Of a DNA stretch of 64,000 nt, positions 7,975-62,827 are shown one piece after another (the first letter of the stretch is position 1; every line of letters begins with the position of its first letter). The notes beneath the pieces were generated by a model. It saw only the letters and a program-made list of their open reading frames with translations, had not been told where the DNA came from and made no database searches. Position numbers and translations under genes: made by a program. This stretch comes from an uncultured Alphaproteobacteria bacterium (GTDB lineage: Bacteria; Pseudomonadota; Alphaproteobacteria; RF32; CAG-239): NCBI GenBank assembly GCA_944393225.1, contig CALXZK010000005.1:2767-66766 (forward strand). The letters are read 5' to 3'.

Positions 7975-8152
7975 TTACACCTCCTGATGTATATAATTGC
8001 AATTTAATTTAGCATAAATTGAAATACTTGCCCAGTTCTAACCTAACTAATTGTTATATATACTTAAATACATAGCCGATAGTTTTACTTTTAAAATTGC
8101 CAATCAAAAAGAAGTAGATTATGATGAGAGCAAATTAATAAAGGAGAAGATT

Positions 8153-8398
8153 ATGCCTGAAAATGATATTCAAAATTTGAGCTTTGAAGATGCGCTCATT
8201 CAGCTTGAAAACATCGTAAGAGAACTGGAAAGCGGACGCATCAAATTGGACGATGCCGTCAAAGCTTATGAAAAAGCCGTTGCGTTGAAACAACTTTGCG
8301 AAAAGAAACTCAAAGACGCTCAGTTGAAAATTGAAAAAATTGAAATTGCCCCCAACGGCGAAATGACGACCACCCCGTTAGATAAGGTAGAAGAATAA
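8153..8398 (+). CDS. xseB: Exodeoxyribonuclease VII small subunit
   Basis: The ORF track gives 8051..8398. The probable true start is the ATG at 8153, preceded by an AAGGAGA RBS, giving ~81 aa. LSFEDALIQLENIVRELESG is a typical XseB N-terminus. The stop overlaps the ispA start (ATGA). Confidence 0.85.
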   Translation: MPENDIQNLSFEDALIQLENIVRELESGRIKLDDAVKAYEKAVALKQLCEKKLKDAQLKIEKIEIAPNGEMTTTPLDKVEE

Positions 8399-43725: not shown

Positions 43726-44796
43726 CTAAAAAATCATTTCATATTTTTCAGCTAATTGATAAGTTCTAGCCTTTTTTGACTCATTAGCATATTGCAAAAA
43801 ACCTTCCGCTACCCACTGGCGCAATAAAAATCGGGCCGATGCTGCTGAAAGCTCTAAAATTTCCGCAATTTGCGTGCTGTTGACTTCCTTATACTCTGCA
43901 AACAACTCTAAAACTTTGCGTTGCTTAATATCTAATTCACGCAATATCGGGCTTTTATCTGTCGTGTAGCCTTTGGTTTGTTCATTTGCCGCATGTTGAT
44001 TAACTTTATCAAAAGCATCTGCCACACCGGCCACAAAATATTCCAACCATGAAGTTATGTCTGCTTCATTCCTGCCGTAATAATAATTATGATGCGGATG
44101 CGTTTGTAATGCATCATAATAACGGATTAAATCTTTTGCATAATATTCTTCCAAAGAATAAATTCCCTTTAGACCATAACCGCCTTTACGCATAACAAAA
44201 CTTGTCAATAATCGTGCGGTTCGGCCATTTCCGTCATAATAAGGGTGTATGGTTACAAACTGATAATGCACTATTCCTGCCACCAATGGAACCGGTAAAT
44301 TAGTTGCATTTTGCACCCATTGGCAAAAATCTCGCATCATCTCCGGCACATCTTTGGCTTCCGGCGGCAAATAAATTTTGGCTCCGGTTTCGCTATCATA
44401 AATGGCATTTTGATTATCTCGGTATGGTATTATACTTTGGCTAGCCTCAACCAAACTATGAATATGTGCAATCAGCTCTTCATCAAAAGAATGATTAGCC
44501 ACAACAGCTTCTTCCATTGCATTCCAAGCCTTATAGTAAGCCTTAACTTCCTGCTCGTCTTTTTCTCTTTGAGGAAGTTTTCGACCATTTAGAGCTTCTG
44601 CAACCTCTTTTCCGCTCAGACGATTACCTTCAATTTGCGTTGAATAGTGAATTGTGGCCACTTTTGCACTTTCTCGCAATGATAACAAAAGTTGTGGTGA
44701 TATGGGTTGATTTTCAAACTGCTGCTTTATAACTTCTATTTTTGAAAGATTTGCAAGCATCTGAGCTGTTACTGTATATTTCGGACGAAAAGCCAT
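43726..44796 (-). CDS. Fic family protein (class II, N-terminal inhibitory helix), putative AMP-transferase
   Basis: 356 aa. Fic motif HPYYDGNGRTARLL. An upstream STQIEGN matches the (S/T)xxxE(G/N) inhibitory motif. The C-terminal region is wHTH-like. Confidence 0.9.
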   Translation of the reverse strand: MAFRPKYTVTAQMLANLSKIEVIKQQFENQPISPQLLLSLRESAKVATIHYSTQIEGNRLSGKEVAEALNGRKLPQREKDEQEVKAYYKAWNAMEEAVVANHSFDEELIAHIHSLVEASQSIIPYRDNQNAIYDSETGAKIYLPPEAKDVPEMMRDFCQWVQNATNLPVPLVAGIVHYQFVTIHPYYDGNGRTARLLTSFVMRKGGYGLKGIYSLEEYYAKDLIRYYDALQTHPHHNYYYGRNEADITSWLEYFVAGVADAFDKVNQHAANEQTKGYTTDKSPILRELDIKQRKVLELFAEYKEVNSTQIAEILELSAASARFLLRQWVAEGFLQYANESKKARTYQLAEKYEMIF

Positions 44797-45500: not shown

Positions 45501-46034
45501 ATGACAAATATAATATTTTTAGGCGGAATTCATGGCTCAGGAAAAAATTTTATATTACAACACGCAAATTTTCAAAATAACATAACTCCCCTAACTGCAA
45601 GTGAGGTTTTAAAGTGGAAAGATTTTAGCGAAAATCCTAACGACAAGAAAGTTAGTTCCATTTCTGACACACAAAATTTATTAATTTCCAATCTAAAAAA
45701 AATAATAACAAACGACGGATTTTATATACTCGATGGACATTTTGTTCTCTTAAACAAAGACGGTCAAATAGAACGCATACCTGAAACTACTTTTTCTGAA
45801 ATTAACCCCAAAGCTTTGATTATTAAAACAGCTTCTCCAAATTCAATACTTGAAAGATTAAAACAGAGAGATAATTGTACTTGGAGCACATCTCTAATTT
45901 CAGACATGCAAAAAGAAGAAATTCAATATGCCAAAGAAATTTCATTAAAACTAAATATAAAATTATATCATATTGAAGATAATCAAGAATCTTTACTGAG
46001 CCAAATAATTAATTCGGAGTTTAATAATGGTTAA
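45501..46034 (+). CDS. Small P-loop kinase-like ATPase (AAA_33 / nucleotide-kinase-like)
   Basis: 177 aa. Walker A IIFLGGIHGSGKNF and a Walker-B-like FYILDGHF. The stop overlaps the next gene's start (ATGGTTAA). Confidence 0.6.
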   Translation: MTNIIFLGGIHGSGKNFILQHANFQNNITPLTASEVLKWKDFSENPNDKKVSSISDTQNLLISNLKKIITNDGFYILDGHFVLLNKDGQIERIPETTFSEINPKALIIKTASPNSILERLKQRDNCTWSTSLISDMQKEEIQYAKEISLKLNIKLYHIEDNQESLLSQIINSEFNNG

Positions 46035-47541
46035 AGTGCTTTTAGATACAAATGTAATCATTTATAGAGAAACAGATAGAATTTTAAATGAAAATACTCC
46101 TGATTTATTCAAATGGTTGGATAAATTACATTACGATAAATTTATTCATCCTCTTACAATCGATGAAATTTCCAAATATGAAAATACTACCTTAAGAGAT
46201 GTTATATTATCTAAACTCTCTTCCTATAATTGTTTATCTTCATTAGCTCCTTTAAATCCGAAAATAGAAGAGATACTATCACTCGATAAAGATGAAAATT
46301 CTGAAAATGATACAAAAATATTAAATGAAGTTGTATCTGGTCGTGTTGATTTTCTTATAACACAAGATAAAGGAATTTACAAAAAAGCAACTTATCTAGG
46401 TATCAGTAATAAAGTCTACTCTATTGAAGCTTTTTCCGCCTATATGTTATCAGAAAATCCTGATTTAATAGATTATTCCATATTATCAGTTAGAAAGAAA
46501 AAAATTGGTTCTCTAGATTTTAAAAGTAAATTTTTTGATAGTCTAAGAGAAAGTTATAAAGGTTTTGACAATTGGCTCAATAAAAAATCGGAAGAGGATG
46601 CCTACGTATGTTTCCTTCAAGATGAATTACAAGCATTTTTGTATTTAAAAAAAGAAGGTCCTGATGAAGTTTATTCAGATATCACCCCTCCTTTTTTACC
46701 TAAACAAAGATTAAAAATAGGAACATTTAAAGTTAGCATGAATGGCTTTAAATTAGGCGAAAGATTTTTAAAAATTGCGTTAGAAAATGCGATAAAATTT
46801 CATGTCGAAGAAGTTTATCTAACAATATTCGACAATAACCCTAATGATATTCCGAAGCAATCTCTTGTCGCTCAACTAAAATCTTTTGGTTTTGAAAAAT
46901 GGGGAACAAAAGCAACTGGCGAAAGTGTTTATGTAAAAAATATGATTCCTCATTTCAATCAAGACAACCCTAAATTATCCTTTCCTTTTTATAATAGAAA
47001 CTCCGACACATATTTGTGCCCTATTCGGCCTGACTATCATACTTCTCTTCTACCAGATTCAATTCTAAATAATGAAAGTCCTGAAGACTTTTCTGAAAAT
47101 AAACCGTTTAGAAATGCAATTTCAAAAGTTTACATATCAAGATCACTTTTTCGAAATTTAAAATGTGGTGATAATATTCTTTTCTATAGAACCGGCGGAC
47201 TATATGTCAGTGTAATTACAACAATTGGCATTGTATATAAAATATATCACCCTAATACGTTCGAAGAATTAAAAGATATATGCCGCCGTAAAAGTATTTT
47301 TTCAGACAAAGAATTAGAAGATTTATGGTATCAAAAATCACAAAATGGCAAGTGGTACAAACCTTTTGTTGTAGAATTTTTATACGTTCATCATCTTCCT
47401 ACACCAAAAATTAACCTCTTTACCCTTATAAAGGAAAAAATAGTAGATAAAGCTCCTAGAGGATTTGAAAAGATATCCGTTGAACACATGAATAAAATTA
47501 TAAAGCTATCGAGGGCTAATGAAAGTTTTATTGTCAATTAA
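46027..47541 (+). CDS. Multidomain protein: N-terminal PIN nuclease, central GNAT-like region, C-terminal PUA-like (EVE/ASCH-like) region
   Basis: 504 aa. PIN acidic residues in VLLDTNVIIY, TIDEIS and VDFLITQD. Central KLGERFLKIALENAIKFHVEEVYLTIFDNN...LKSFGFEKWG looks like a GNAT beta4-alpha3 core. The C-terminal LKCGDNILFYRTGGLYVSVITTIGIVYKIY resembles the EVE/ASCH beta-barrel signature. Domain calls are by eye only. Confidence 0.5.
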   Translation: MVKVLLDTNVIIYRETDRILNENTPDLFKWLDKLHYDKFIHPLTIDEISKYENTTLRDVILSKLSSYNCLSSLAPLNPKIEEILSLDKDENSENDTKILNEVVSGRVDFLITQDKGIYKKATYLGISNKVYSIEAFSAYMLSENPDLIDYSILSVRKKKIGSLDFKSKFFDSLRESYKGFDNWLNKKSEEDAYVCFLQDELQAFLYLKKEGPDEVYSDITPPFLPKQRLKIGTFKVSMNGFKLGERFLKIALENAIKFHVEEVYLTIFDNNPNDIPKQSLVAQLKSFGFEKWGTKATGESVYVKNMIPHFNQDNPKLSFPFYNRNSDTYLCPIRPDYHTSLLPDSILNNESPEDFSENKPFRNAISKVYISRSLFRNLKCGDNILFYRTGGLYVSVITTIGIVYKIYHPNTFEELKDICRRKSIFSDKELEDLWYQKSQNGKWYKPFVVEFLYVHHLPTPKINLFTLIKEKIVDKAPRGFEKISVEHMNKIIKLSRANESFIVN

Positions 47542-47896
47542 ACCTGAGTTCGTAGAAAAAATATTTTCAGGAGAAAAGCGTTTTGAATATAGAAAAAATA
47601 TATTCAAAAATATTGCTATTGAATCTATCGTTATCTATTCGACAATGCCCGTTGGCAAGATTGTTGGTGAATTCAAGTTCAAGACTATTCATAAAAATAC
47701 CCCAAAAATAATTTGGAAAGAGACAAAAAAGTATTCTGGGATTTCAGAAGATTTCTTTTTTAACTATTTTGAAAATAAAAAAGAAGCTTGTGCTATAGAG
47801 ATTAGTGAAGTTCATAAATATAAAACACCTATAGATCCACATAGTTTGTTACCTAACTTTGTAGCCCCTCAATCATTTTGTTATTTAGACTTATAG
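47519..47896 (+). CDS. ASCH-domain protein
   Basis: 125 aa. N-terminal LLSIKPEFVEKIFSGEKRFEYRK is the classic ASCH signature. Overlaps the preceding gene by 23 nt. Confidence 0.7.
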   Translation: MKVLLSIKPEFVEKIFSGEKRFEYRKNIFKNIAIESIVIYSTMPVGKIVGEFKFKTIHKNTPKIIWKETKKYSGISEDFFFNYFENKKEACAIEISEVHKYKTPIDPHSLLPNFVAPQSFCYLDL

Positions 47897-47922: not shown

Positions 47923-49221
47923 CTACTTCTGCTCCAATTCGGCAAATTTTTGAGCCATGGTCGGGTTATTGCGGGTTAAACGTTTAACCGTCAAATCTTG
48001 AGCTTTATTATTCGCCAAACGCAAGTTATTCTCAGAAGAAAGCAAGGCATCTTTTGTCTTTTGCAAATGGTCGATTGTCTTATCAATTTCTTCAATCGCT
48101 TTGCGGAACTTATCACTAGCCAACTGATAATTGCGTCCGAATTTCTCCTTAAAATCATTCATTTCCGCTTCAAAATTGGAAATATCTATATTTTGGTTCT
48201 TATATTCCGCCAATTGTTTACGATATTGAACCGAATTCAAAGCTGCATTTCTAAGCAATGTAATCATTGAGATAAAGAACTGCGGACGAATAACATACAT
48301 TTTGGGATAACGATGCGAAACATCAACAATTCCGGTATTATAGAGTTCATTATCAGATTCAAGCAAAGATACCAAAACTGCATATTCGCAATTTTTCTCG
48401 TTACGGTCTTTATCCAGTTCCTTAAAGAAATCCTCATTTTTATGTTTGGTTGCCGTGGTATCCATCTCATTTTTCATCTCAAACATAATGGATATAAATT
48501 CAATACCCTCGGGCGTACTCTCTCTGAAGATATAATCGCCTTTACTTCCGGTTTTGGCATCATTATCTTTTTCAAAGTAAGCATTTTGAAAAGCTGTGGC
48601 TCGCAAACGATTAAACTCAATCTCACAATGTTGTTCCAGAGTTTCCCCCACCATTTTGGTTGATTGACGAGTTTTCAAATCTTTATAAAAAGCGATTTCC
48701 GTATCTTTCGCCTTGAGTTGAACCGCAAAATTGTCTTTTAGGGATTGTTCTTGAAGTTGCTTATCTTTTTCAGCTTCTTTGAGTTGGCTTTCAAGTTGCA
48801 TAATTTTCTTGTCTTTTTCAACCAATTCATCTTTTTTCTCACTTACAGCCGAAGCAACGGCCAAAGTTTTGGCTTGTTCATTAGATTGAACTTGAGCCTT
48901 GAGGCGTTCGATTTCCTGATTAAGACTATTCAAGGAGCGTTCTTTTTCAATATCTTTATCTTTAGCAACCGTTGTAATTTCTGCTTTCAAACGTTCAATT
49001 TCTTGTTTGAGGGCTGCCGTAGATTGCTCTTGCTCCATTTTAGCCTGAGTTTTGATAAGAGAAAGCTCACTCTCCTTCTCTTTGGCAAGCTGAGCTTCAC
49101 GTTCATGCAGTTCCTTATGAAATTCGGCATTACGAACTTGGCCGATAATCGCTGCATAACCGGACTCATCAACCGTAAAAACTTCTCCACACTTCGGACA
49201 TTTTATCTCAGGCATCATCAT
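47923..49221 (-). CDS. Zinc-ribbon plus long coiled-coil protein with a C-terminal PD-(D/E)xK-like region (DUF2130/RmuC-like architecture)
   Basis: 432 aa. N-terminal CPKCGEVF zinc ribbon, then ~250 aa of E/K/Q-rich heptad-like sequence. C-terminal KGDYIF...[11 protein letters not shown] contains a D...E-x-K arrangement. Family assignment is from memory and tentative. Confidence 0.5.
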
Positions 49222-49601
49222 TCTCCTAAAAAACCTTAGCCCAGATTAAAACATCTAGGGCTAAAGTCAAATGAAAGATTGAATATATATTTTAACTTTA
49301 TGTCATTGGCGACAATATGTTAAAAACTTACGCACAAGCCTAATTTTTACCGCTCCAATTTAATAAACAACACGACAATATACCTTTGGAGTTCGAAAAC
49401 TGCATAGAACAGACACACAAAGAGGCAAGGATGTCAAAGTCCTTGTCTCTTTTTTAACATAATGTCACTTAGGGCAAAATGTTTAAATAGCATGAGATTT
49501 ATAAAATCTGCAAATAAGGTATTAACTTCCTTGATTGTTGAAAATATCCTGATAATATATCTCATAAGTTTAATTTAACTAAATTTCATACAGAGGTTGT
49601 A

Positions 49602-51110
49602 ATGGCGGGTAAAAATAACGCAAACATTGGTTTTGAAAAGCAAATTTGGGATGCAGCCTGCGAGCTTTGGGGACATATTCCGGCGGCAGATTACCGTAAA
49701 GTAATCGTCGGGCTGATTTTTTTGCGCTATATTTCTTTTGCTTTTGAAAAGCGTTATCAAGAACTGGTAGCTGAAGGCGATGGTTTTGAAGATGATAAAG
49801 ATGCCTACACCGAAGAAAATATATTCTTTGTACCGGAAAAAGCTCGTTGGGGTACGATTGCCGCAGCTGCACACACACCGGAAATCGGGATTGTAATTGA
49901 TGAAGCAATGCGTGCCATTGAAGATGAAAATAAAGTTTTGAAAAATGTTTTACCCAAGAATTATGCCAATCAAGATTTAGATAAACGCGTTTTGGGCAAT
50001 GTAGTGGATTTGTTCACAAATAATATAGATATGTCTGACACGGATGAAGACAAAGACTTGCTCGGTCGCACTTATGAATATTGCATTGCTCAGTTTGCCG
50101 CTTATGAAGGAACCAAGGGTGGTGAATTTTACACACCGTCAAGTATTGTTAAAACGATTGTTGAAGTCTTAAAACCTTTTGATAACTGCCGTGTTTATGA
50201 TCCTTGCTGTGGTTCGGGCGGAATGTTTGTTCAATCAGTTAAATTTTTGCAAGCTCACAGTGGCAATCGCAATCATATTTCCGTATATGGACAAGAATCA
50301 AATGCCGATACTTGGAAAATGGCTAAAATGAATATGGCTATACGCGGGATTGATGCCGATTTTGGTCCTTATCAAGCCGATACATTTTTTAATGACTTGC
50401 ACCCAACTTTGAAAGCCGATTTTATTATGGCTAATCCGCCGTTTAACCTTTCCAACTGGGGACAAGACAAATTGCTTGATGATGTGCGATGGAAATATGG
50501 TATTCCGCCGGCAGGAAATGCCAACTATGCGTGGATTCAACATATGATTTATCACCTTGCACCTAAAGGAAAAATCGGTTTGGTTTTGGCAAACGGTGCT
50601 TTATCTACTCAAACCAGCGGCGAAGGAGAAATCAGAAAACGCATTATTGAAGCAGATTTGGTAGAAGGTATTGTCGCTTTGCCACCGCAATTGTTTTATA
50701 GCGTTACAATTCCGGTTACTTTATGGTTTATCAGCCGCAATAAAGCACAAAAAGGCAAAACTTTGTTTATTGATGCGCGCAAAATGGGCTATATGGCCGA
50801 CCGCAAACACCGTGATTTCACGGATGAAGACATCAAAAAAATTGCCGATACCTTTACCGCTTTTCAAGAAGGAAAATTGGAAGATGTTAAAGGCTTTTGT
50901 GCCGTAGCCAGCACGGAAGATATTGCCAAACAAGATTATATCTTAACCCCCGGACGCTATGTGGGGATTGAGGAGCAAGCCGACGATGGCGAACCTTTTG
51001 AAGATAAGATGAAACGCCTGACAACAGAGCTAAAAGATATGTTTGAGCAGTCCGACCACTTGCAAAATGAAATCAAAGAAAAACTCAAAGCAATCGGCTG
51101 GGAGATGTAG
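49602..51110 (+). CDS. hsdM: Type I restriction-modification system, N6-adenine DNA methyltransferase subunit
   Basis: 502 aa. Motif I DPCCGSGGM and motif IV IMANPPFN, plus an HsdM N-terminal domain. Confidence 0.95.
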   Translation: MAGKNNANIGFEKQIWDAACELWGHIPAADYRKVIVGLIFLRYISFAFEKRYQELVAEGDGFEDDKDAYTEENIFFVPEKARWGTIAAAAHTPEIGIVIDEAMRAIEDENKVLKNVLPKNYANQDLDKRVLGNVVDLFTNNIDMSDTDEDKDLLGRTYEYCIAQFAAYEGTKGGEFYTPSSIVKTIVEVLKPFDNCRVYDPCCGSGGMFVQSVKFLQAHSGNRNHISVYGQESNADTWKMAKMNMAIRGIDADFGPYQADTFFNDLHPTLKADFIMANPPFNLSNWGQDKLLDDVRWKYGIPPAGNANYAWIQHMIYHLAPKGKIGLVLANGALSTQTSGEGEIRKRIIEADLVEGIVALPPQLFYSVTIPVTLWFISRNKAQKGKTLFIDARKMGYMADRKHRDFTDEDIKKIADTFTAFQEGKLEDVKGFCAVASTEDIAKQDYILTPGRYVGIEEQADDGEPFEDKMKRLTTELKDMFEQSDHLQNEIKEKLKAIGWEM

Positions 51111-51111
51111 G

Positions 51112-51978
51112 ATGAATAATTCTGATTTAAATAATAAATACTTCATAGATGATAAGGCTTTTAATTGTCCATTTTGTGGTTTGAGAAATGCAACATATAC
51201 AATATTGGCAATTCTTGAGCATGATATATCAACTACAAAGAAGGGAAAAATTATTTTTGTAAAATGCAATAGATGCAAAAAAATTTCAGTTCACTTCGCG
51301 CCTTATGATGTTTTAACTTCTGAGTGGAAAACTGGAAAAATTGGAATTTATATGACAGAATTGGGGTGGGGAGTACTAGATGCTTCATATGACATTTCTT
51401 TTCACAATTCAAAGAATGAAGTTTCTCCTTTTGATGTTGATTTAGATAGTAAAATTTATCATAGTATTCCAAGCTCTTTTTTTACAATGGATGATAGAAT
51501 TCCTAAAAAAATGAGACAACTCGTTGATGAAGCTCAGGAGTGCAAAAAAGCTAATCTAAAAACAGGTGCTTCTGCTTGTTTAAGAAAATTGATATATACC
51601 TTATTGTCAGACCAGCTAAATAAAAAAGCCGGAAAAGAAAATGTTAGTTTAAAGGACTTAGGTTATGAACACTATTCTGATTGCATAAAAGCTTTTAAGG
51701 AATATTGTCCTGATTTAACAGTGTTTATAGAACCTTTAGAAGATATTACAGGTATCACTAGTGACCAAGTTCATGAAAATTCTTGGGATGAAATATCCTC
51801 TAAAGATATTGAAATTTGCTTAGTTTCCATCAAGGATTTATTAGATGAGCTCTATGTTCAACCAGCCCTTTTAAAAGAAAGACGTGAAGCAATATTAAAA
51901 TTGAAGGAAGAAGCTCTACATAAACAGAAGGCTTCGACTAAACAAGGGCAAAATCACACGATAGAAAAAAAAGGATAA
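51112..51978 (+). CDS. Hypothetical protein embedded in the RM operon: N-terminal zinc ribbon, C-terminal DUF4145-like region
   Basis: The ORF track begins at 51043. The in-frame ATG at 51112 follows the hsdM stop and a GGAG RBS. N-terminal C-x2-C...C-x2-C (CPFCG...CNRCKK). C-terminal ASACLRKLIYTLLSDQL...ITGITSDQVHEN resembles what I recall of DUF4145, a domain common in RM neighbourhoods. Tentative. Confidence 0.5.
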   Translation: MNNSDLNNKYFIDDKAFNCPFCGLRNATYTILAILEHDISTTKKGKIIFVKCNRCKKISVHFAPYDVLTSEWKTGKIGIYMTELGWGVLDASYDISFHNSKNEVSPFDVDLDSKIYHSIPSSFFTMDDRIPKKMRQLVDEAQECKKANLKTGASACLRKLIYTLLSDQLNKKAGKENVSLKDLGYEHYSDCIKAFKEYCPDLTVFIEPLEDITGITSDQVHENSWDEISSKDIEICLVSIKDLLDELYVQPALLKERREAILKLKEEALHKQKASTKQGQNHTIEKKG

Positions 51979-51982
51979 AAAC

Positions 51983-52255
51983 ATGTATCCTTGGCAAAGT
52001 TTCGTAATTGGAATTTTAGAGTTTGCGGCGTGGCCTATTGTTGCTATTTGCTGTGCTTTGATATTTAAAAAAGATATTAGTAATTTGCTTTCCAGAATTA
52101 AAACTTTACCCGGAGGAACAGAATTAAACCCTCAAGTTGTTGAAAATCAGGCTGAAAGCAAAAAAGATTTTGATGAATTATACATAAAGACACAAGAAAA
52201 ACAAAATAGAGAAATTGAAAAAACAGCTTCTGCAAAGAATAAGGAGGCACAATAA
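51983..52255 (+). CDS. Small membrane protein
   Basis: 90 aa. N-terminal TM helix FVIGILEFAAWPIVAICCALIF and a charged C-terminal half. 4 nt after the previous stop. Confidence 0.4.
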   Translation: MYPWQSFVIGILEFAAWPIVAICCALIFKKDISNLLSRIKTLPGGTELNPQVVENQAESKKDFDELYIKTQEKQNREIEKTASAKNKEAQ

Positions 52256-52663
52256 ATGCTTAATTATAATAAACAAAAAGCCTTAGGCGAACTTTTAGAT
52301 GTTATTAATAAAGGTATTAGTTTATTGGCTAATGACTATTTAGGCAAAGATTTGTGTCAAGCTTATGAAAAATATGTTTTTTCAACAATGCAATTAGTTG
52401 ATGCTGCTTTTACGACAAACTATTCTTTAGAATTTTCTAAAAATTATTCACCATTTAGACAATCATCACCTGTGTATGGTAATGACTATTGGTTAAAATC
52501 TATAACTTCAATACATCAGCCTAATAGCGCCAAAAATATTACCGCAACATTTGATGTATCTAGCGAGAGAAGACATAAAGAAGAATTACAAAAACTCTTA
52601 CAAAGATTGGTCGATATAACGAAAATTTTAATTTCGAGATATAATCAACAAAGCTTGTTTTGA
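52256..52663 (+). CDS. Hypothetical protein
   Basis: 135 aa. Start abuts the previous stop and the stop overlaps the hsdS start. No recognisable motifs. Confidence 0.45.
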   Translation: MLNYNKQKALGELLDVINKGISLLANDYLGKDLCQAYEKYVFSTMQLVDAAFTTNYSLEFSKNYSPFRQSSPVYGNDYWLKSITSIHQPNSAKNITATFDVSSERRHKEELQKLLQRLVDITKILISRYNQQSLF

Positions 52664-53953
52664 TATGCTACTTATATAAAAAGAAAAGAATAAGGATAAG
52701 AAGAATGGCTAAAAACCAAGAGAAGAAATGGCAAGAGGTTAAGTTGGGGGATGTGTGCGATGTTTTAAATGGTCGTGCATATAAACAAAGCGAATTACTT
52801 AATACTGGAAAATATCCAGTATTAAGAGTAGGAAACTTTTTTTCTCGAGATAAGTGGTATTATTCAAATTTAGAGTTAGAAGAAAGTAAATATTGTAACA
52901 ACGGCGATTTGCTATATGCTTGGTCTGCATCTTTTGGCCCCAAAATCTGGAACAATGGCAAAGTAATTTATCATTATCACATATGGAAACTGCAACCTAA
53001 CTTGGCCATTCTTGATAAACTTTATTTATTTTATTGGCTAAAAGAATCAACATCATTACTTACACAAGGAATACATGGTAGTGTTATGGCTCATTTAACC
53101 AAATCAGATATGGAGAAAATGCTAATATCTCTCCCACCGCTTGAGGTACAAAAGAAGATTGCGGGGTTGTTGGGAGCTTTGGATGATAAAATTGAGCTGA
53201 ACAACAAAATTAATCAAAACCTAGAAGCCCAAGCCCAAGCCTTATTCAAATCTTGGTTTATCGACTTTGAACCTTTCGGCGGTAAAATGCCCGATGATTG
53301 GAAGGAAATAAACCTATCTGATATTGCTGAATTTATAGGAGGATATTCTTACAAAAGTAGTGAATTACAATCTTCATCTACAGTGATGGCAACAATTAAA
53401 AACTTTGATAGACAAGGCGGATTTAAACTTGATGGATTTAAAGAAATTTCTCCATCAGAAAAATTAAAGGAAAATCAAAAAATTTCTTTATTTGATACCT
53501 TAGTAGCTCATACGGATTTAACTCAAAATGCAGATGTAATAGGAAATGCAGAAATGTTGTTGAGCACTGCTGGGTACTCAAATGTTATTATCTCGATGGA
53601 TGTTGTAAAAGTTATACCTAAAAAAGGTATTTCTAAATTTTTACTGGCCACCTTGTTAAAAGATAACAGATTTAAGCAGCATTGTTTAGGCTATATAAAT
53701 GGAACTTACCGTATTACACCTTAGTAAAAAAGCATTACCTGAATATACATTTGCGTTTCCCAATAATATGACGGATGTGGCTAAATTAACCAATATCTTA
53801 GAATATTTATATAAGAAATTAGCGTATAATATAGAAGAAAATTTAAGATTAGCTGAGTTGAGAGATGCTCTCCTCCCCAAGCTCATGTCTGGCGAAATTA
53901 ATGTAGATGATGTTAAAATCTCAAATAATATGCTATCATCTTCTGAGGAGTAA
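52660..53953 (+). pseudogene. hsdS: Type I RM specificity subunit HsdS, interrupted by a frameshift near 53699..53724
   Basis: Frame 1 (52660..53724) encodes TRD1, the central conserved region (LPPLEVQKKIAGLLGALDDKIELNNKINQNLEAQAQALFKSWF) and TRD2. A +1-frame ORF (53699..53953) encodes the conserved HsdS C-terminus (...RLAELRDALLPKLMSGEI). Either an authentic frameshift or a sequencing error. Confidence 0.75.
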
Positions 53954-53956
53954 AGA

Positions 53957-54817
53957 ATGACCATTGATCAAACTGAATACATTGAATTACTTGCTAGACT
54001 AGATAATATAGCTCAAACGAGTGGATGGGAAATAGCAAATGTAATCGCTACGTTCTGCGCTGTTATTGTCGCTCTTTTTTTTCCTTTAAGAGAATATGTT
54101 AGAACATTTCCTAAATTTGTACTCAAAATAAATATTCCCGAAATACGAGAAGCAAATTTAGATGGGATTGATAAACCTCATGTTGGCATTTCAATCAAAA
54201 ACCTTTCAAAAGAAGTCTTATATTTAAAAGATGCGTTTTTATACTTTGATTTAAAGGATTATCATAATTTCAGAGTATACTTACATTTGGGATTAAACCA
54301 TGAATTTAAAATCTTACCGTATTCTGAGGAATTTGTAGAATATTTTATTTGGCATAAAGATGTTTATAATGGAAGAAAACCAGTAAAAGAATTTTTATCT
54401 ACAAATAAACAAGTAGCAAAACAATATTTAAAAGGTGTGTCTGGATATGAAAAGGTTAAAAATATATCTATAGCTATACATACTAACTTAGGAAGAAGCA
54501 ATAAAAAAATACCTAAATGGGGATGGGAAGAACTCGTAAATCAATTATTAGATATTGTTTTCAGCTTAGATAAAGAACGGCAAACAATTTTAAAAAAACA
54601 TCTTGGCAATAAGCAAGATAAAAACATTAAAGAAACTTTTATAAAATATTTAAAAGATATGGAAACATTAGATAAAAAAAGATATCAAGAATACAAAGAT
54701 AAGTGTTCAAAAGGGATACAGGAAGAAAAAGAACGCAAACGACGAAGAAAAGAAATTACCAGACACAGAAATACCAATATATTAAAAAGGATATTTAATC
54801 ATGACCACATATTTTGA
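53957..54817 (+). CDS. Hypothetical membrane-anchored protein between hsdS and hsdR
   Basis: 286 aa. N-terminal TM helix WEIANVIATFCAVIVALFFPL and a basic C-terminus (KERKRRRKEITRHRN). Overlaps the hsdR start. Confidence 0.5.
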   Translation: MTIDQTEYIELLARLDNIAQTSGWEIANVIATFCAVIVALFFPLREYVRTFPKFVLKINIPEIREANLDGIDKPHVGISIKNLSKEVLYLKDAFLYFDLKDYHNFRVYLHLGLNHEFKILPYSEEFVEYFIWHKDVYNGRKPVKEFLSTNKQVAKQYLKGVSGYEKVKNISIAIHTNLGRSNKKIPKWGWEELVNQLLDIVFSLDKERQTILKKHLGNKQDKNIKETFIKYLKDMETLDKKRYQEYKDKCSKGIQEEKERKRRRKEITRHRNTNILKRIFNHDHIF

Positions 54818-57800
54818 AAATTCTGTCAATGAAAATGCTTATGAAGCCTCGATTATTGAGCTGTTTCAAAATATGGGGTATGTTCATGTTTATGGGCCGG
54901 ATATTGAAAATCGCGACTTCACCTCTCCTTTATATGATGATGTTTTAGAAGAAGCATTGGTTCGGCTCAACCCAAAGCTTCCGCAAGCTGCTATTAATGA
55001 GGCTTTGTTCAAGCTCCGAAATTTTGAAAACGCAGAACTGGTACAAAAAAATGCCATTTTTATGGATTATCTGCAAAATGGAATTACCGTCCGCTATACA
55101 GAAAAAGGCGAACCTAAAGATACGATTGTTTATCTTATCGATTATGATAAACCAGCCAACAACTCTTTTATTATTGCAAATCAATGGACTTTTGTTGAAA
55201 ATAGTGAAAAACGCCCTGATATTTTGCTGTTCATCAATGGTTTGCCCTTGGTTTTGATGGAGCTCAAATCTCCATCTCGTGAAGAAACCGATGTTTCTGC
55301 CGCTTATCGCCAAATTCAAAACTATAAATATGAAATTCCTTCTATGTTTATTTATAATGCCATTTGTGTAATGAGCGACTTGTTGACGTCAAAGGCAGGA
55401 ACTCTCACTTCCGGTGAAGACCGCTACATGGAATGGAAAACTATTGATGGTTCTTATGAAAATACGCAACATGCGCAATTCGATACTTTCTTTATGGGAA
55501 TCTTTGCCAAAGAGCGTCTATTGGATATTTTGAAAAACTTTATCTGTTTTTCTAATGAAAATAGAGGGCTTGTTAAAATTATGGCGGCTTATCACCAATA
55601 TTTTGCCGTTAAAAAAGCCATTACCTCAACCAAAAACGCCACAGAAACTGACGGTAAAGGCGGTGTTTTTTGGCATACGCAAGGAAGTGGAAAATCTTTA
55701 TCTATGGTCTTTTATGCTCATCTGTTGCAAAAAGCCTTAAACAGCCCAACAATCGTGGTGATTACTGACCGCAACGACTTAGACGACCAGCTTTATAGCC
55801 AATTTGCCAAGTGTAAAGACTTTTTACGTCAAGAGCCTGTTCAAGCCGAAAGTCGAGCTCACCTAAAAAAACTCTTAGGCGGCATTAAAGCCAACGGAAT
55901 TTTCTGTACAACAATGCAGAAATTTGAGGAATCAGATGAACCCTTATCTGAAAGACGTAATATTATCGTGATGGCTGATGAAGCGCACCGCGGACAATAT
56001 GGGCTGACCGAAAAAATAGATGAAAAAACCGGAAAAATTAAAATCGGAGCAGCACGTGTTATTCGTGATTCCTTACCCAATGCCACATATATCGGCTTTA
56101 CCGGTACGCCGATTTCCACCAAAGACCGCAGCACACGTGAGGTTTTCGGAAATTATATTGATGTTTATGATATGACACAAGCAGTGGAAGATGGTGCAAC
56201 ACGTCCGGTTTATTATGAAAGCCGTGTGATTAAACTTCATCTGAAACCGGAAGTTTTGCGTTTGATTGATGCAGAATATGACCTTATGGCTCATAATGCT
56301 GATCCTGAAGTGATTGAAAAGAGCAAAAAGCAACTCGGACAAATGGAAACTATTTTGGGCGATGACAGCACAATCAATTCTCTGGTTACCGATATTTTAG
56401 ACCATTATGAAAATAACCGTGCCAACCTCTTAACCGGAAAAGCTATGATTGTGGCTTATTCTCGCCCGATTGCGATGAAAATATATCGCAAAATCTTAGA
56501 ACTTCATCCTGATTGGCAAGAAAAAGTCGCCGTGGTTATGACTTCTGATAACAATGATCCCGAAGATTGGCACAATATTGTTGGGAATAAAGCCTATAAA
56601 GAAGAATTAGCTCGCAAGTTCAAAGATAATTCTGATCCGCTCAAAATTGCCATTGTTGTTGATATGTGGCTGACCGGATTTGATGTGCCTTCCCTTGCAA
56701 CAATGTATGTTTATAAGCCGATGAGCGGACACAACCTGATGCAAGCAATCGCTCGTGTTAACCGCGTTTTCCAAGACAAAGAAGGTGGTTTGGTAGTTGA
56801 TTATGTCGGAATTGCCAGCGCTTTGAAGCAAGCTATGAATGATTATACTATCCGCGACCGCAAAAATTATGGTGATACGGATATTTCAACCGTAGCTAAA
56901 CCGAAATTTATTGAAAAATTGGAAGTTTGCCGCGGTTTGTTACATGGATTTGATTATTCCGACTTTGCAAAAGGAAGCAATTTACAACGAGCAAAACTTA
57001 TCAGTGGTGCCGTAAACTTTATTATTGCCCGTGAAAAAGAAAAACAAAAAGAAGATTTTGTTAAAGAGGCTTTGCTCCTAAAACAAGCTCTTTCTTTGTG
57101 CTCATCTTTAATTGAAGAAAAATTGCGTATTGAAGCCGCCTTTATGGAAGCTGTGCGTGTTTTGGTTGTTCGTTTAACTTGTTCAGGCAATAGCGGCAAG
57201 AAAATCTCTCTACCGGAGATGAACGAGAGAATAAATGAACTTCTGAAACAAAGTATTAGAAGCGACGGTGTTATCAATCTGTTTTCTGACATCAAAGAAG
57301 AATTTTCTTTGTTTGATCCTAAGTTTTTGGAAGAAATATCTAAAATGAAGGAGAAAAACTTGGCGGTTGAATTGCTCAAAAAATTAATAGCCGAGCAAAT
57401 CAGTGTTTATCGCCGTACAAACGTTGTTAAATCAGAAAAATTCAGCGAGATAATCCAAGAAGCAATGAACCGTTATCTGAACGGTATGCTCACCAATGAA
57501 CAAGTTATTGAAGAACTCTTAAACTTGGCTAAACAAATTGCCTCTGCTCAAAAAGAAGGTGATGATTTAGGCTTAACCCCAGATGAATTAGCTTTTTATG
57601 ATGCTCTGACCAAGCCTCAAGCCGTTAAAGATTTTTATGAAAACGATGAACTTGTCGCCATTATCAAAGAACTGACTGAGGCTTTGCGTAAAAATAAAAC
57701 TATCGACTGGCAAAAAAGAGAAAATGCTCGAGCAAAAATGCGCATGATGATTAAAAAGCTCCTTAAAAAGCATAAATATCCGCCGGAAGGCATGGAAGAT

Positions 57801-57860
57801 GCCGTCCAAACTGTTATGACTCAATGTGAGCTTTGGACTGATAATGTTATGGAAGCGTAA
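54801..57860 (+). CDS. hsdR: Type I restriction enzyme R subunit (SF2 helicase/endonuclease)
   Basis: 1019 aa. N-terminal nuclease region, Walker A, and the DEAH box IIVMADEAHRGQYG, followed by further helicase motifs. Confidence 0.95.
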   Translation: MTTYFENSVNENAYEASIIELFQNMGYVHVYGPDIENRDFTSPLYDDVLEEALVRLNPKLPQAAINEALFKLRNFENAELVQKNAIFMDYLQNGITVRYTEKGEPKDTIVYLIDYDKPANNSFIIANQWTFVENSEKRPDILLFINGLPLVLMELKSPSREETDVSAAYRQIQNYKYEIPSMFIYNAICVMSDLLTSKAGTLTSGEDRYMEWKTIDGSYENTQHAQFDTFFMGIFAKERLLDILKNFICFSNENRGLVKIMAAYHQYFAVKKAITSTKNATETDGKGGVFWHTQGSGKSLSMVFYAHLLQKALNSPTIVVITDRNDLDDQLYSQFAKCKDFLRQEPVQAESRAHLKKLLGGIKANGIFCTTMQKFEESDEPLSERRNIIVMADEAHRGQYGLTEKIDEKTGKIKIGAARVIRDSLPNATYIGFTGTPISTKDRSTREVFGNYIDVYDMTQAVEDGATRPVYYESRVIKLHLKPEVLRLIDAEYDLMAHNADPEVIEKSKKQLGQMETILGDDSTINSLVTDILDHYENNRANLLTGKAMIVAYSRPIAMKIYRKILELHPDWQEKVAVVMTSDNNDPEDWHNIVGNKAYKEELARKFKDNSDPLKIAIVVDMWLTGFDVPSLATMYVYKPMSGHNLMQAIARVNRVFQDKEGGLVVDYVGIASALKQAMNDYTIRDRKNYGDTDISTVAKPKFIEKLEVCRGLLHGFDYSDFAKGSNLQRAKLISGAVNFIIAREKEKQKEDFVKEALLLKQALSLCSSLIEEKLRIEAAFMEAVRVLVVRLTCSGNSGKKISLPEMNERINELLKQSIRSDGVINLFSDIKEEFSLFDPKFLEEISKMKEKNLAVELLKKLIAEQISVYRRTNVVKSEKFSEIIQEAMNRYLNGMLTNEQVIEELLNLAKQIASAQKEGDDLGLTPDELAFYDALTKPQAVKDFYENDELVAIIKELTEALRKNKTIDWQKRENARAKMRMMIKKLLKKHKYPPEGMEDAVQTVMTQCELWTDNVMEA

Positions 57861-59095: not shown

Positions 59096-59383
59096 TTGCG
59101 GTCCTTTTTTCGTTTTAAAAAGGAACAAACTATGAATCCAGAGAATTTTAATTTACCAAACAATACTGTCTCCCAATATATTATTTCTCATTTAACCACC
59201 GCAACATTAAAGCGTGGCTGGATGACAACTGATGAATTAGCCTATATTTTAGGTTGTTCAACAAAAACAATCACACGATGGAGAAAAGCCAACAAATTAA
59301 CTCCCAAATGTTTTTGCGTAGGAAAATATTGTTACTTCATTCCTGATGTGTATGAGTTTTTTATCTCTTCTTGCATTAATTAA
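59096..59383 (+). CDS. Small HTH DNA-binding protein (AlpA/excisionase-like)
   Basis: 95 aa. TDELAYILGCSTKTITRWRKANKLTP is a typical AlpA/Xis-type helix-turn-helix. Confidence 0.55.
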   Translation: MRSFFRFKKEQTMNPENFNLPNNTVSQYIISHLTTATLKRGWMTTDELAYILGCSTKTITRWRKANKLTPKCFCVGKYCYFIPDVYEFFISSCIN

Positions 59384-59666
59384 TCTACTTTGTCTATTTT
59401 CCGACAATAATGTCCCTTGAAGTCGTTCCTTGTCATCTCCCCAAAAACTCAAAAATATTGTATATAAAATACTGTAAGCAACAACGAGTATACGGAGCAA
59501 AAAATGACATGAACTTCTTAATATCTCTTACGAATTTTGCTTAGAGCTTTATATAGGCAAATTCAATCTAAAAAAATTTTCACTTAACATTCCCAATTTT
59601 CAGCCGGCAAGACCATGTTTTTCCGGATAGGGAGAAATTTAACCTTAATTTTAGAAAGGAAATAAA

Positions 59667-61450
59667 ATGACTAATACTGTAGCAACTTTAGCACAAACCC
59701 AAACTTTGGCTGATATTGATAATCAAAATCCTGTTTCCGATACAACTAATATCATTGATGCTGAATATACTATTACAAGTGAAGACATTCCGCATGAATT
59801 ATCTGAAGCAAAAGAACTTGTTGCTATTAATGACAATAAGTTCCCTACAATACCTACCGATCCTACTGCATTACCACAATTTATTACGGTAGCCAAAAAA
59901 CGTGTTGAAGCCAAAGCTAAATTGTTAAATGTAATACAATTCACCCCTGAACAATATAAACAAGCCTTTGCTCAAACTCAAAAAGAAGCAACTTCATTAC
60001 TAATTGCGGAGTTAAATCTAAGCGAAGCATTAAAAGCAATTAAGACACAACAAGGATTAAGATCTGACCTCAAAAAGAAAGAGGCATTAACAACCTTTAA
60101 TAAAGAAGTAAAAACAAAAAAAGAAATTATCAAAAAAGTATTTAACTTAACCCCAAGACAAGCCAGAGATATTGAAAAATTGACCAAAGATTGTGTATTA
60201 AGAGCAATAGAATTTGCCAAAGACAATAATATCATTCCAACCAGAGCTCTTGCTTTATCCCAACTGCCAAAAAGGGAAAAAGATGAAACTGGAGACATAA
60301 CCTTCATACCGATTGAAGAAACAGAAGACAAAGTATTTTCATCAGAAGAACCACTTTATTATACTTCTTTGTTTGCTAATGTTGGAATTGGTACTTACTA
60401 TCTTCACAATCAAAATATTAATTGCGCTGTGGCTAATGAATTACTAGATGAAAGAGCAGAATGGCACAATTATATTTATCCTGAGGCCAAAATGGTTCAA
60501 GGCGATATAACTGACCCAGAAGTATATAACGAACTTGTAGAATTGCACAAACAACATGGTTGTAAACTCGTCCTGGCTTCTCCTCCGTGTCAATCTTTCA
60601 GCAAAGCCAATAATTCTAAGGGAAAGGTTTCAGATATTCGCACACCTTTATTCAGAACAAACCTAGAATTTATTCGCGACACAAACCCAGATTATGCTAT
60701 GATTGAAAATGTTCCTGATTTCTTAAATGCGAAACCTAAACAATTAAAAGAACTGTTAGGAGACTTAACAATTGGGGAATATATCAAGCAAGAATTAGAA
60801 AATATGGGATATGTTGTTAATATTGGTGTTTATAGTGCGGCTGATTATGGAACCGCTCAAGATAGACAACGAGCCATTATCCTTGCTGCCAAAAAGGAGT
60901 TAGGTTTATGGAAATTTCCTAAAAAGGATAAATTCAGAAAGCTTTTATTTGAAGCAATCGGGGATTTACCATCTTTGGAACCAGGGCAACAAGACCCAGA
61001 AAGACCAATGCACTATGCTTTGGATTTACCGGCTTGTCAAATTGAGTTCCTCAAACATACCCCTACGGCATCTTCTGCCTGGAAAAATAAAAAGGAATAC
61101 CAACCAGTTAATGTCGATGGTAGTGAAAGCTGTGCTCAATTTAAAGCTAGTTTTTCTAGAAAAGACTGGAATAAACCATCAAATACAGTTTTAACTGGTA
61201 GCGACAGCCTTGGAGGAATGATAAATATACATCCTGCCGTCCGTTATCTGATGGAACATATTCTGATTGCAGACCATTATCTATTCTAGAACTTTTTAGA
61301 ATAACCGGACTTCCTGATGATTATCCTATCCCGGAAAAGTTTATCAAGAATGATAAATTAATCCGAGATGTCATCGGAGAATGCTTTGCTCCACTTCACG
61401 TAGCAAGACTAATGACAACAATGCCTAATAAAAGCAAGGTAAAAGCATAA
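59667..61450 (+). pseudogene. DNA (cytosine-5)-methyltransferase with a ~230-aa N-terminal extension; the C-terminus continues in the +1 frame after a frameshift
   Basis: Frame 1 (59667..61289) has motif IV LASPPCQSFSKAN and motif VI MIENVPDFL. Frame 2 (61202..61450) encodes RPLSILELFRITGLPDDYPIP (motif IX, cf. R.LT.RE.ARLQGFPDDF) and a motif-X-like tail. The frameshift lies between 61202 and 61289. Confidence 0.8.
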
Positions 61451-61798
61451 TTAAACTATCTGTGAGGGAGCTAGCAAGCTCCCTTACTTACTATTGTACC
61501 ATTAAAATTGTCTCTCTTTTTCATATATTTAAATACAAAAAACACAAAAAAAGAAAAAATCACGCAAATTTTATGAAAAAAAACAATTCTATATTATGTG
61601 TCACATACTGGTTTACTATGATCCACCATAATCAAGTATAACTGTTTAAGCAGTCCAGGATACAAGGAAGCTAAAACGCATCCTTTGTTATTACTATACT
61701 TAAAATAAATTATAAATAAATGAATTAAAATAAATAAAAATAATAACTTAAGTAAAATTAAATATAAAAAATAAATGTAAAAAGTAAGAATAAAGAAG

Positions 61799-62827
61799 AT
61801 GAAAATAAGAAAGAATAAACCAAAATATAAACAAGTATCGTTGCAAGAGATGATGGCAGAAATAACAAATAATCCAATGCCAAAGAGTAATGCAACGAGA
61901 AGTATTGAAGATTATATATATGTATTAGGTATTATAAGAAGATATGGATTAAATTATATTCTTGATAAAGTAAAAGATAAATTTGAATTAAGTAATTTTG
62001 TTTTACCTTTATTTGAATATGGTATTTCTTTTAATGATTTTTTAGTTACTTCTTCTATTTTATCTATGAATCCTAATATTAGATATGATGATAATAATTT
62101 TAAAAAGATGTATAGCGGTAAACTTAATGGGAATCAAATAAACCGTATCCAAGAAATAGTTAATAAAATCTCTAGTATTTCCAAATGTCTGAATAATCTA
62201 AAACTTAATCAAAACACTCACATAAACAAGCCTAAATCAACCCCAGAATTACAAAATAGCCTAGATATAATAAAACCTATACCAAATGACATAACTGATT
62301 CCTACGGTCAAAAAATAGATTCTTTTGTAAAATCAATATATTCTGATAAAAAACATTTAACTCCAGATACTATAAGAAAAATATTTAATGAATGGATTAC
62401 TCAAGAATATAATCCAACTCACTTTTTAACTGTACAACTACCAGATAATCAAAAAACTAAAGATTTATATATTTCTATTAATCATTTAAGAAACATAATG
62501 AAAACATTTGAAAAGAGTTTAATGAATAACTGGAATAGACATCACTTACGTTTTATTGCTTTTGCAGAGAATGGAACGAGTAGTGATTGGCATTTTCATA
62601 TATTATTTAATCAAAGAAACTTTACAGAAGAAGAATTACAAAATGCTATTCTAAAGGCAAATATAAGAGAAAAATTACCTTTTTATTGCTTAGAATTAAG
62701 AAAAATTGATACCAATGTAATAAATGTTGATTCTTATTGTACGAAAGAAATTAATATATGTTGGAATGGAAAATTTAACAGTGATGGTATTATTTTTTCA
62801 GAAAACTTATTTAATCTCAATAAATGA
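61799..62827 (+). CDS. Hypothetical protein with HUH-like motifs (Rep-like)
   Basis: 342 aa, extremely AT-rich. HFLTVQLP (motif-1-like) and SDWHFHILF (HUH-like), as in the island Rep at 34418. Confidence 0.4.
   Translation: MKIRKNKPKYKQVSLQEMMAEITNNPMPKSNATRSIEDYIYVLGIIRRYGLNYILDKVKDKFELSNFVLPLFEYGISFNDFLVTSSILSMNPNIRYDDNNFKKMYSGKLNGNQINRIQEIVNKISSISKCLNNLKLNQNTHINKPKSTPELQNSLDIIKPIPNDITDSYGQKIDSFVKSIYSDKKHLTPDTIRKIFNEWITQEYNPTHFLTVQLPDNQKTKDLYISINHLRNIMKTFEKSLMNNWNRHHLRFIAFAENGTSSDWHFHILFNQRNFTEEELQNAILKANIREKLPFYCLELRKIDTNVINVDSYCTKEINICWNGKFNSDGIIFSENLFNLNK

Follow-up and report, generated by a model that had tools for sequence, protein, structure and literature searches.

The anticodon nucleases PrrC (EcoprrI) and RloC are embedded in type I restriction-modification (RM) operons, the hsd loci of C. 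jejuni carry rlo genes, and several genes embedded in RM, BREX or DISARM operons are proven autonomous defence systems. The operon described here occupies positions 49602-57860 of a 64,000-nucleotide (nt) stretch of DNA, hereafter called the window, from contig CALXZK010000005.1 of an uncultured Alphaproteobacteria bacterium. It is a single same-strand, closely packed type I RM operon from a human-gut alphaproteobacterial metagenome-assembled genome (MAG). Seven reading frames are present on the + strand, in the order hsdM, open reading frame (ORF) 2, ORF3, ORF4, hsdS, ORF7 and hsdR.

Embedded defence candidates in RM, BREX and DISARM operons have been described under the term 'guilt by embedding' (Payne et al. 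2024, bioRxiv 10.1101/2024.01.29.577857), and TgvAB lies within a type I RM system of V. cholerae (PMC11411939). HEPN domains of the DUF4145 type occur fused to zinc ribbons or transmembrane segments and in operons with RM genes (Anantharaman et al. 2013, PMC3710099); their membrane form carries an N-terminal single transmembrane helix with a conserved WP signature (PMC3710099). RAZR (ring-activated zinc-finger RNase) of E. coli, formerly PD-T7-4, combines a zinc-finger domain with a DUF4145/HEPN RNase active on ssRNA, and assembles as higher-order oligomers around rings of the phage portal or of Gp77 (PMC13017515). It is an experimentally shown abortive-infection RNase that requires both R146 and H154 and owes its specificity to the zinc-finger domain (PMC13017515).

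The window operon resembles the embedded-cargo loci in having unrelated same-strand genes between the hsd genes, which vary among homologous operons and often encode nuclease or effector domains; it differs in that ORF3, ORF4 and ORF7 match no model of PADLOC v2.0.0, the PDC candidates included. Compared with PrrC and RloC, ORF7 alone of the four ORFs lies exactly in the prrC position, and by analogy the shared logic would be that a type I RM system is expressed together with a suicide effector that lies dormant. The four ORFs, however, have no ABC/P-loop ATPase (Walker A) or anticodon-nuclease domain and no sequence or fold similarity to these nucleases. The original prediction, made from the sequence without database searches, had held them to be neither PrrC nor RloC, and scans against Pfam, NCBIfam and PADLOC agreed with it in giving no P-loop or ABC match. 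The embedding of defence genes in RM operons has already been described for DUF4145 genes, PrrC, rlo, TgvAB and the candidates of Payne et al.; the present locus is a further case of this kind, and its value lies in a well-defined two-slot cassette system, a RAZR-like clade without the catalytic Arg, and three orphan candidate modules.

Cargo slots across the RM lineage

A metagenome scan with HsdM yielded more than 594 matching stretches, 80 of which were kept for a survey (designated here by L numbers). The survey set comprised 55 loci with HsdM of at least 82% identity and the same HsdR family, and the slots were scored in 53 of these. The junction between hsdM and hsdS, termed slot 1, holds ORF2 (51112-51978, +), ORF3 (51983-52255, +) and ORF4 (52256-52663, +) in the window. 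It was empty, with overlapping genes, in 29 of the 53 loci, contained a short gap of 207-433 nt in three and was filled in 21. The junction between hsdS and hsdR, termed slot 2 and corresponding to the prrC position, holds ORF7 (53957-54817, +) in the window; it was filled in 51 of the 53 loci and free of cargo in the other two.

The gene directly upstream of hsdR belonged to about 20 unrelated clusters. Fillers across both slots included FRG, a CAP12/Pycsar-type TIR, PIN_12, a weak VRR-NUC match, a HAD-like protein, RhuM/Fic, a 675-aa protein with a faint HATPase_c_3 match, AAA_15/21 ATPases and a HEPN(NTase_sub_bind)-MNT pair; several others were transmembrane proteins without known family. 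Within the 55-locus survey, same-strand genes were replaced by unrelated ones in homologous operons. The idea that such operons act as 'landing pads' was strongly borne out by the related loci, with their approximately 20 unrelated slot-2 families.

The closest comparison is provided by L097 and L098, which share 95-96% (hsdM) and 93-94% (hsdR) nt identity with the window. Homology to both loci breaks exactly at the hsdM stop and at the hsdR start, and L097 is devoid of precisely ORF2, which points to an exchange of cargo as cassettes by recombination within the conserved hsdM and hsdR flanks. Conservation of the insert as a block, envisaged earlier as a check, was not found: ORF2, ORF3+ORF4 and ORF7 occur separately and in other combinations. 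The four ORFs are therefore three independent passengers (ORF2; ORF3+ORF4; ORF7) in two slots.

Two further arrangements were seen among the sister operons. L094 (8500-10389), L096 (3758-5641) and L097 (3371-5275) contain a gene of the HEPN toxin type (NTase_sub_bind, RNDTSH motif), followed by a minimal nucleotidyltransferase (MNT) domain (GSRVKG...SDLD) that is fused in-frame to the N-terminus of HsdS. In this way a toxin-antitoxin pair of the HEPN-MNT type is tied physically to the specificity subunit of the RM system. In most relatives of the lineage (L104-L177, e.g. L110 5584-9899), a full hsdS and inverted half-hsdS genes flank the gene for a tyrosine recombinase (329 aa, Phage_integrase 2e-31), as in a phase-variable specificity shufflon; this layout is absent from the window copy.

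ORF2, a RAZR-like zinc-ribbon protein

ORF2 encodes a protein of 288 aa composed of a Cys4 zinc ribbon (residues ~13-64, nt 51148-51303), a hypervariable beta segment (residues 65-110, nt 51304-51441), and a conserved linker with a helical domain of predicted HEPN fold (residues 111-278, nt 51442-51945). In alignments of 27 and of 61 relatives, C19, C22, C52, C55 and H61 were invariant. The linker is conserved at D112, P120 and P131, and the helical domain is invariant at R135, N148, G152, S154, R158, K159, Y162, S217, H221, E222 and P251. The hypervariable segment retains 48-59% identity in homologues that are 92-97% identical elsewhere, which would fit a recognition surface under diversification.

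A Pfam scan of ORF2 gave no match, DUF4145 included, and the Pfam DUF4145 model matched three of the 61 family members. The PADLOC model of PD-T7-4 was matched weakly (E=1.4e-4, model positions 10-108 of 211); 42 of the 61 relatives matched the same model, the best of them at 4e-7. The RAZR sequence was retrieved from PDB 9y9c via a haloarchaeal homologue. Against this entry the ORF2 family profile scored E=0.07, with the ribbon aligned to RAZR residues 10-55, and hhalign of the ORF2 family with RAZR gave a probability of 70% (E=4e-5). In the hhalign alignment the invariant H221 falls on RAZR H154 and R158 falls on R105. RAZR R146 falls on ORF2 G214, in a column occupied by D/Q/G and neighboured by one with Q/K/T/H, and Arg was found there in none of the 61 sequences. 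The canonical HEPN Rx4-6H is accordingly missing; its His alone is kept, in the motif T-S-D-x-V-H-E, of which S217, H221 and E222 are invariant. A Foldseek search of the ORF2 model against the PDB returned nothing significant (best E=0.21), the top-ranked matches being HEPN proteins.

ORF2 shares with RAZR the order of domains (an N-terminal Cys4 zinc ribbon, a conserved proline-bounded linker and a C-terminal domain that in ORF2 has a predicted DUF4145/HEPN fold), the helix-2 motif 'GA(S/A)A.LR' with its aligned Arg, the catalytic His, a variable region on the sensor side and the occurrence as a single-gene unit in most genomes. It differs in its remote sequence relation, in the missing counterpart of R146, in a 45-residue hypervariable insert between ribbon and linker, in length (288 aa compared to 219 aa in PDB chain 9y9c; PADLOC model length 211) and in being embedded in an RM operon. 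Because one defining catalytic feature, R146, is missing, ORF2 is best described as having a predicted RAZR architecture and fold, and as RAZR-like rather than RAZR. The Zn-ribbon/DUF4145-like label given to it in the original prediction holds for the fold and for remote homology, with four invariant cysteines; the accompanying view that none of the ORFs matches a described system has to be revised in favour of a distant tie to RAZR (formerly PD-T7-4; PMC13017515). A defence role of ORF2 can reasonably be predicted from this kinship.

Close relatives of ORF2 (at least 44% identity) were all found in alphaproteobacterial MAGs from gut or rumen, adjoining restriction genes. In eight architectures they occupy slot 1 of a type I RM operon, and in a ninth they lie beside an Mrr-type restriction enzyme. 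Slot 1 of the type I operon is the location in the window, L001/2, L012, L178, L179, L180 and L181; in L003 the relative lies within a different type I family, and in L013 directly 3' of the Mrr-type endonuclease. The broad ORF2 family, at identities of 30-38%, was found in at least 98 species-representative genomes of those scanned; these come from many bacterial phyla and include one archaeon. These relatives stand alone in more than 80 species, with no RM system nearby. They are flanked mainly by housekeeping genes and by few SIR2, TIR, AbiEi or restriction-enzyme genes. No conserved partner gene was found for the broad family, the largest neighbour cluster covering eight of 84 loci, and ORF2 therefore fits a solitary single-gene unit. 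A tblastn search of ORF2 against phage genomes gave no match, and IMG/VR contained one ORF2-like locus. Occurrence outside RM or defence contexts, which had been named beforehand as an argument against an embedded defence role, was thus observed in part, and for the broad ORF2 family only.

ORF2-like genes of the gut clade usually adjoin a small protein of 90-175 aa with an N-terminal hydrophobic helix (L001 7473-7988, L003 7477-7992, L180 5457-5981, L178 8877-9170 and window 51983-52255). These small neighbours are not all homologous to one another; their recurrence hints at a membrane partner of the zinc-ribbon/HEPN protein.

ORF3, ORF4 and ORF7

ORF3 encodes a small single-pass membrane protein of 90 aa with one strong hydrophobic helix at residues 5-29 (KD19 hydropathy 2.26) and the conserved motifs AWP and LPGG. 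ORF4, whose start abuts the ORF3 stop with a gap of 0 nt, encodes a soluble, probably helical protein of 135 aa, and six ORF4 homologues were found in 5.8 billion clusters. ORF3 and ORF4 always occur together, either immediately 3' of hsdM or behind another cargo gene of slot 1, and were seen exclusively in slot 1 of this RM lineage (window, L005, L094/95, L096, L097, L100 and L178/179). Five architectures have the pair but no ORF2, and two have both. Scans of ORF3, ORF4 and ORF7 against Pfam, NCBIfam, PHROGs and PADLOC gave nothing above noise, and sequence searches of the PDB with the ORF4 and ORF7 profiles gave no match. It is the position of ORF3+ORF4 that suggests a defence role for the pair.

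The conserved AWP transmembrane helix of ORF3 recalls the membrane form of DUF4145 proteins (PMC3710099). In L180, an ORF3-type transmembrane module (hmmsearch 1.2e-18) is joined to a C-terminal domain with the sequence RYRNFLVH, which contains an RNxxxH motif; the resemblance is one at the level of motifs. Differences from the published proteins are that Pfam DUF4145 misses ORF2 and most of its family (three of 61 members matched) and that the Arg of Rx4-6H is absent. A HEPN identity was considered for the 174-aa protein of L180, a 436-aa protein of L005 and a 294-aa protein of L001, each of which has an RNxxxH motif. Pfam, hhalign and PDB searches did not support it, and the HEPN call for the L180 fusion therefore stays a motif-level hint. 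ORF4 was likewise rejected as a degenerate HEPN domain and as the split-off C-terminal domain of the 174-aa ORF3-like fusion of L180 (hhalign probability below 1% in both cases).

ORF7 encodes 286 aa arranged as an N-terminal helix, a transmembrane helix (residues 22-48, KD19 2.42), a beta-sandwich (residues 56-184), further helices and a long basic C-terminal helix, in agreement with the transmembrane protein with a basic tail that had been predicted. The family is very rare: a word-index search returned 20 homologues, and 10 representative clusters were found among 1.84 billion proteins. It occupies slot 2 in L005-L009 and lies away from hsd operons in L010/L011; IMG/VR contained no ORF7 relative. 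A defence role of ORF7, too, is suggested by its position. The 294-aa slot-2 protein of L001 was rejected as an ORF7 relative (hmmsearch 0.005 on a database of 14 sequences, 6 bits). In L010, approximately 5 kb separate a relative of ORF7 (47% identity) from one of the ORF2 family (E=4.6e-26), at 2233-3099 and 7853-8614 (-), within an integrase-bearing island without hsd genes. This co-occurrence may be due to chance within a defence island.

All four ORFs are genuine genes under purifying selection, because the ratios of non-synonymous to synonymous substitution (dN/dS) against homologues are low: 0.11-0.18 for ORF2, 0.26-0.35 for ORF3, 0.19-0.32 for ORF4 and 0.16-0.25 for ORF7. The corresponding values of hsdM and hsdR are 0.03-0.06.

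The hsd genes and the frameshift in hsdS

The gene hsdM (49602-51110, +) encodes a methyltransferase subunit of 502 aa (Pfam N6_Mtase 4e-110, HsdM_N 8.5e-24; PADLOC MTase_I 4e-196). Its 90%-identity cluster has 362 members, one of which is named as coming from an Alphaproteobacteria bacterium MAG. The gene hsdR (54801-57860, +) encodes the restriction subunit of 1019 aa, in which the N-terminal nuclease domain (HSDR_N 2.6e-39), the SF2 translocase (SWI2_SNF2/ResIII, SWI2_SNF2 2e-76) and the C-terminal assembly domain (T1RH-like_C 5.7e-98) were all detected, together with T1R_D3-like; PADLOC REase_I matched at E=0. All seven frames are present at the coordinates given earlier, and the profile searches with Pfam and PADLOC upheld the RM identities that had been assigned to this locus.

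The spacing between consecutive reading frames, in gene order, is 1, 4, 0, 41, 3 and -17 nt, which agrees with the earlier description of ORFs lying inside a type I RM operon and closely linked to its genes. A Shine-Dalgarno-like motif precedes every start in the operon; the last codons of hsdM (GGC TGG GAG ATG TAG) provide the Shine-Dalgarno-like GGGAG for ORF2. Promoter-like and terminator-like matches within the operon did not exceed those in shuffled controls, and no repeats beyond chance were found. With the tight spacing, these features make co-transcription of the seven genes plausible. The overlap of ORF7 with the start of hsdR (54817/54801), noted earlier, was retrieved as 17 nt. The second overlap that had been reported, 52663/52660, depends on a TTG start of hsdS; the ATG at 52705 agrees with homologues and with the gene call in L093, leaves a spacer of 41 nt after ORF4 and is probably the true start, rather than TTG 52660.

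The original prediction missed a frameshift in hsdS, where an additional T at 53706/53707 ('aat gga acT Tac c') causes the frame to stop at 53724. The N-terminal part (52705-53724, +; 340 codons) comprises both target-recognition domains and the central conserved region (Methylase_S 2e-39; PADLOC Specificity_I). The C-terminal conserved helix is stranded by the +1 frameshift in a different frame, in an 84-codon ORF (53699-53953, +; PADLOC Specificity_I 1.2e-14, model positions 373-439 of 446), and positions 53827-53919 share 89-95% nt identity with the hsdS 3' ends of L097 and L098. The two target-recognition domains and both conserved helices that make up an intact type I HsdS are thus not in one frame. 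The stranded piece begins with its own ATG at 53699 and might be produced separately. The sole other record of the window sequence, L093, has the same frameshift, but as it is 100% identical over 6.4 kb it provides no independent confirmation. The extra base lies outside a homopolymer tract and is therefore no obvious phase-variation switch; it could be a real mutation, perhaps a recent one, or an assembly error. Owing to the frameshift, this strain may lack an active RM system.

Neighbourhood of the operon

Upstream of hsdM, a three-gene operon (45501-47896, +) encodes a kinase-like AAA_17 protein of 177 aa, a protein of 504 aa matching PDC-M11A (5e-183) and an ASCH protein matching PDC-M11B (1.5e-50), and constitutes a PADLOC candidate defence system. 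A Fic-domain protein is encoded at 43726-44796 (-; SoFic defence model, 1.7e-50) and a DUF2130 protein at 47923-49221 (-; 3e-90). The region comprising the RM operon, SoFic, PDC-M11 and DUF2130 is a defence island. Between hsdM and the divergent DUF2130 gene lies a 39-nt imperfect inverted repeat (49288-49326 / 49451-49489; 77% complementary, 124 nt apart), which may be an operator or the remnant of a small element. Downstream, at 59096-62827, are genes for an HTH_17 protein, a 540-aa C5-cytosine methyltransferase with an N-terminal extension of ~230 aa, and a Rep (ORF2/G2P-type) replication initiator. The GC content of this region is very low (0.23-0.26), and the region may derive from the integration of a small replicon or of an ssDNA element.

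Interpretation

We regard it as probable that the operon belongs to an RM lineage with two cargo slots, which in the window house three passengers, namely the RAZR-like ORF2, the membrane module ORF3+ORF4 and the membrane-anchored ORF7, as defence cargo. The hsdM-hsdS and hsdS-hsdR junctions would serve as exchangeable slots, with cargo swapped via recombination in the hsdM and hsdR flanks. Being translationally coupled to the hsd genes, the cargo would be made whenever the RM system is made. ORF2 would be a stand-alone sensor-effector built like RAZR: a phage protein would be sensed by the zinc ribbon together with the neighbouring hypervariable segment, whereupon the HEPN-fold domain would bind or cleave RNA and so abort the infection. 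Its chemistry would have to differ from that of RAZR because the Arg of Rx4-6H is missing while S217, H221, E222, R158 and K159 are invariant. ORF3+ORF4 would form a two-gene membrane-associated module and ORF7 a beta-sandwich protein anchored in the membrane, with its basic tail in the cytoplasm, both predicted to be second-line effectors of the abortive-infection type that act on restriction failure. The anti-phage function and these mechanistic steps are what we infer; gene identities, predicted folds, modularity and slot structure are what the analysis shows.

Several points weigh against this reading. An anti-phage role for any of the ORFs is a prediction from sequence and gene position. 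The link between ORF2 and RAZR is weak (PADLOC 1.4e-4; 9y9c E=0.07; hhalign 70%; Pfam DUF4145 undetected), the Arg essential in RAZR is absent from the aligned position in all 61 members, and the neighbours of the broad ORF2 family are chiefly housekeeping genes. ORF3, ORF4 and ORF7 have neither homology nor an informative fold, and the role assigned to them derives from their position. The survey covered 80 of more than 594 matching loci with crude gene calls based on the longest ORF, and the hsdS frameshift means that the locus is not wholly intact here. A bolder form of the defence-cargo reading seems unlikely to us: in this form the ORF2 clade, present in at least 98 species-representative genomes and without Pfam annotation, would be a widespread RAZR-like clade that lacks the catalytic Arg, uses different chemistry or acts as a non-catalytic sensor, and, in the gut lineage, is partnered by small membrane proteins. 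In that case ORF3+ORF4 and ORF7 would be new abortive-infection effectors that act at the membrane and are tied into the Hsd complex; like PrrC, they would be kept silent by the intact RM enzyme until a phage disables it.

The tight translational coupling, including the 17-nt overlap of ORF7 and hsdR, could also indicate that the embedded proteins belong to the RM enzyme itself as accessory or regulatory components, serving restriction alleviation or control (ORF2 as a Lar-like zinc ribbon) or tethering of Hsd to the membrane (ORF7, ORF3). In this lineage slot 2 hardly ever lacks cargo, and ORF3/ORF4 were seen in no other lineage, as expected for such components; ORF2 has weak matches to Lar (TIGR03655 E=0.068; Pfam Lar_restr_allev in 11 of the 61 family members, best 8e-4). 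These matches, however, lie below any curated cut-off and probably reflect generic zinc-ribbon similarity. The same slots house many unrelated effector-type alternatives (TIR, FRG, PIN, HEPN, AAA ATPases), and cargo is absent from slot 2 in two loci and from slot 1 in 29; moreover, solitary ORF2 relatives in more than 80 species have no RM system nearby and ORF7 relatives lie away from hsd genes in L010 and L011. An accessory function is hence improbable. We also consider it doubtful, and little favoured by the evidence, that the passengers are selfish addiction modules of the toxin-antitoxin kind (with ORF3+ORF4 as a toxin/antitoxin pair) or neutral hitch-hikers spreading by means of RM expression and flanks, with no dedicated anti-phage role. 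ORF3 and ORF4 are indeed small and abutting and one of them would insert into the membrane, a bona fide toxin-antitoxin-type HEPN-MNT pair occupies the same slot in related loci, cargo turns over fast between near-identical hsd flanks, and dN/dS of the cargo exceeds that of the hsd genes. Yet ORF3/ORF4 resemble no known toxin or antitoxin in searches of Pfam, NCBIfam, PHROGs, PADLOC and the PDB, the closest characterised relative of ORF2 is a proven defence protein, defence-type domains dominate among the slot fillers, and toxin-antitoxin and abortive-infection roles can coexist.

The hsdS frameshift at 53706/53707, shared with the identical L093, would be accounted for if the locus were decaying, with a dead RM system and the embedded ORFs as relics facing loss. 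This is very improbable, as the other genes are all intact and all four ORFs are under purifying selection against homologues. The frameshift affects a single base and may be recent or an assembly error, L093 is no independent observation, and the C-terminal piece of hsdS, with its own ATG at 53699, may be produced separately.

Significance

The findings do not overturn current understanding; they supply candidates and a comparative framework. A type I RM lineage frequently met in metagenomes of the human gut (more than 594 matching stretches) acts as a two-slot cassette holder, with at least 20 cargo families at the prrC position. As such it offers a compact natural collection of candidate defence effectors whose insertion points are exactly defined. 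ORF3+ORF4 and ORF7 represent very rare orphan families, for which position is the sole functional clue. ORF2 extends the predicted RAZR architecture to a large unannotated clade without the essential Arg, and this clade bears on whether the HEPN/DUF4145 scaffold works via a different active site or as a pure sensor.

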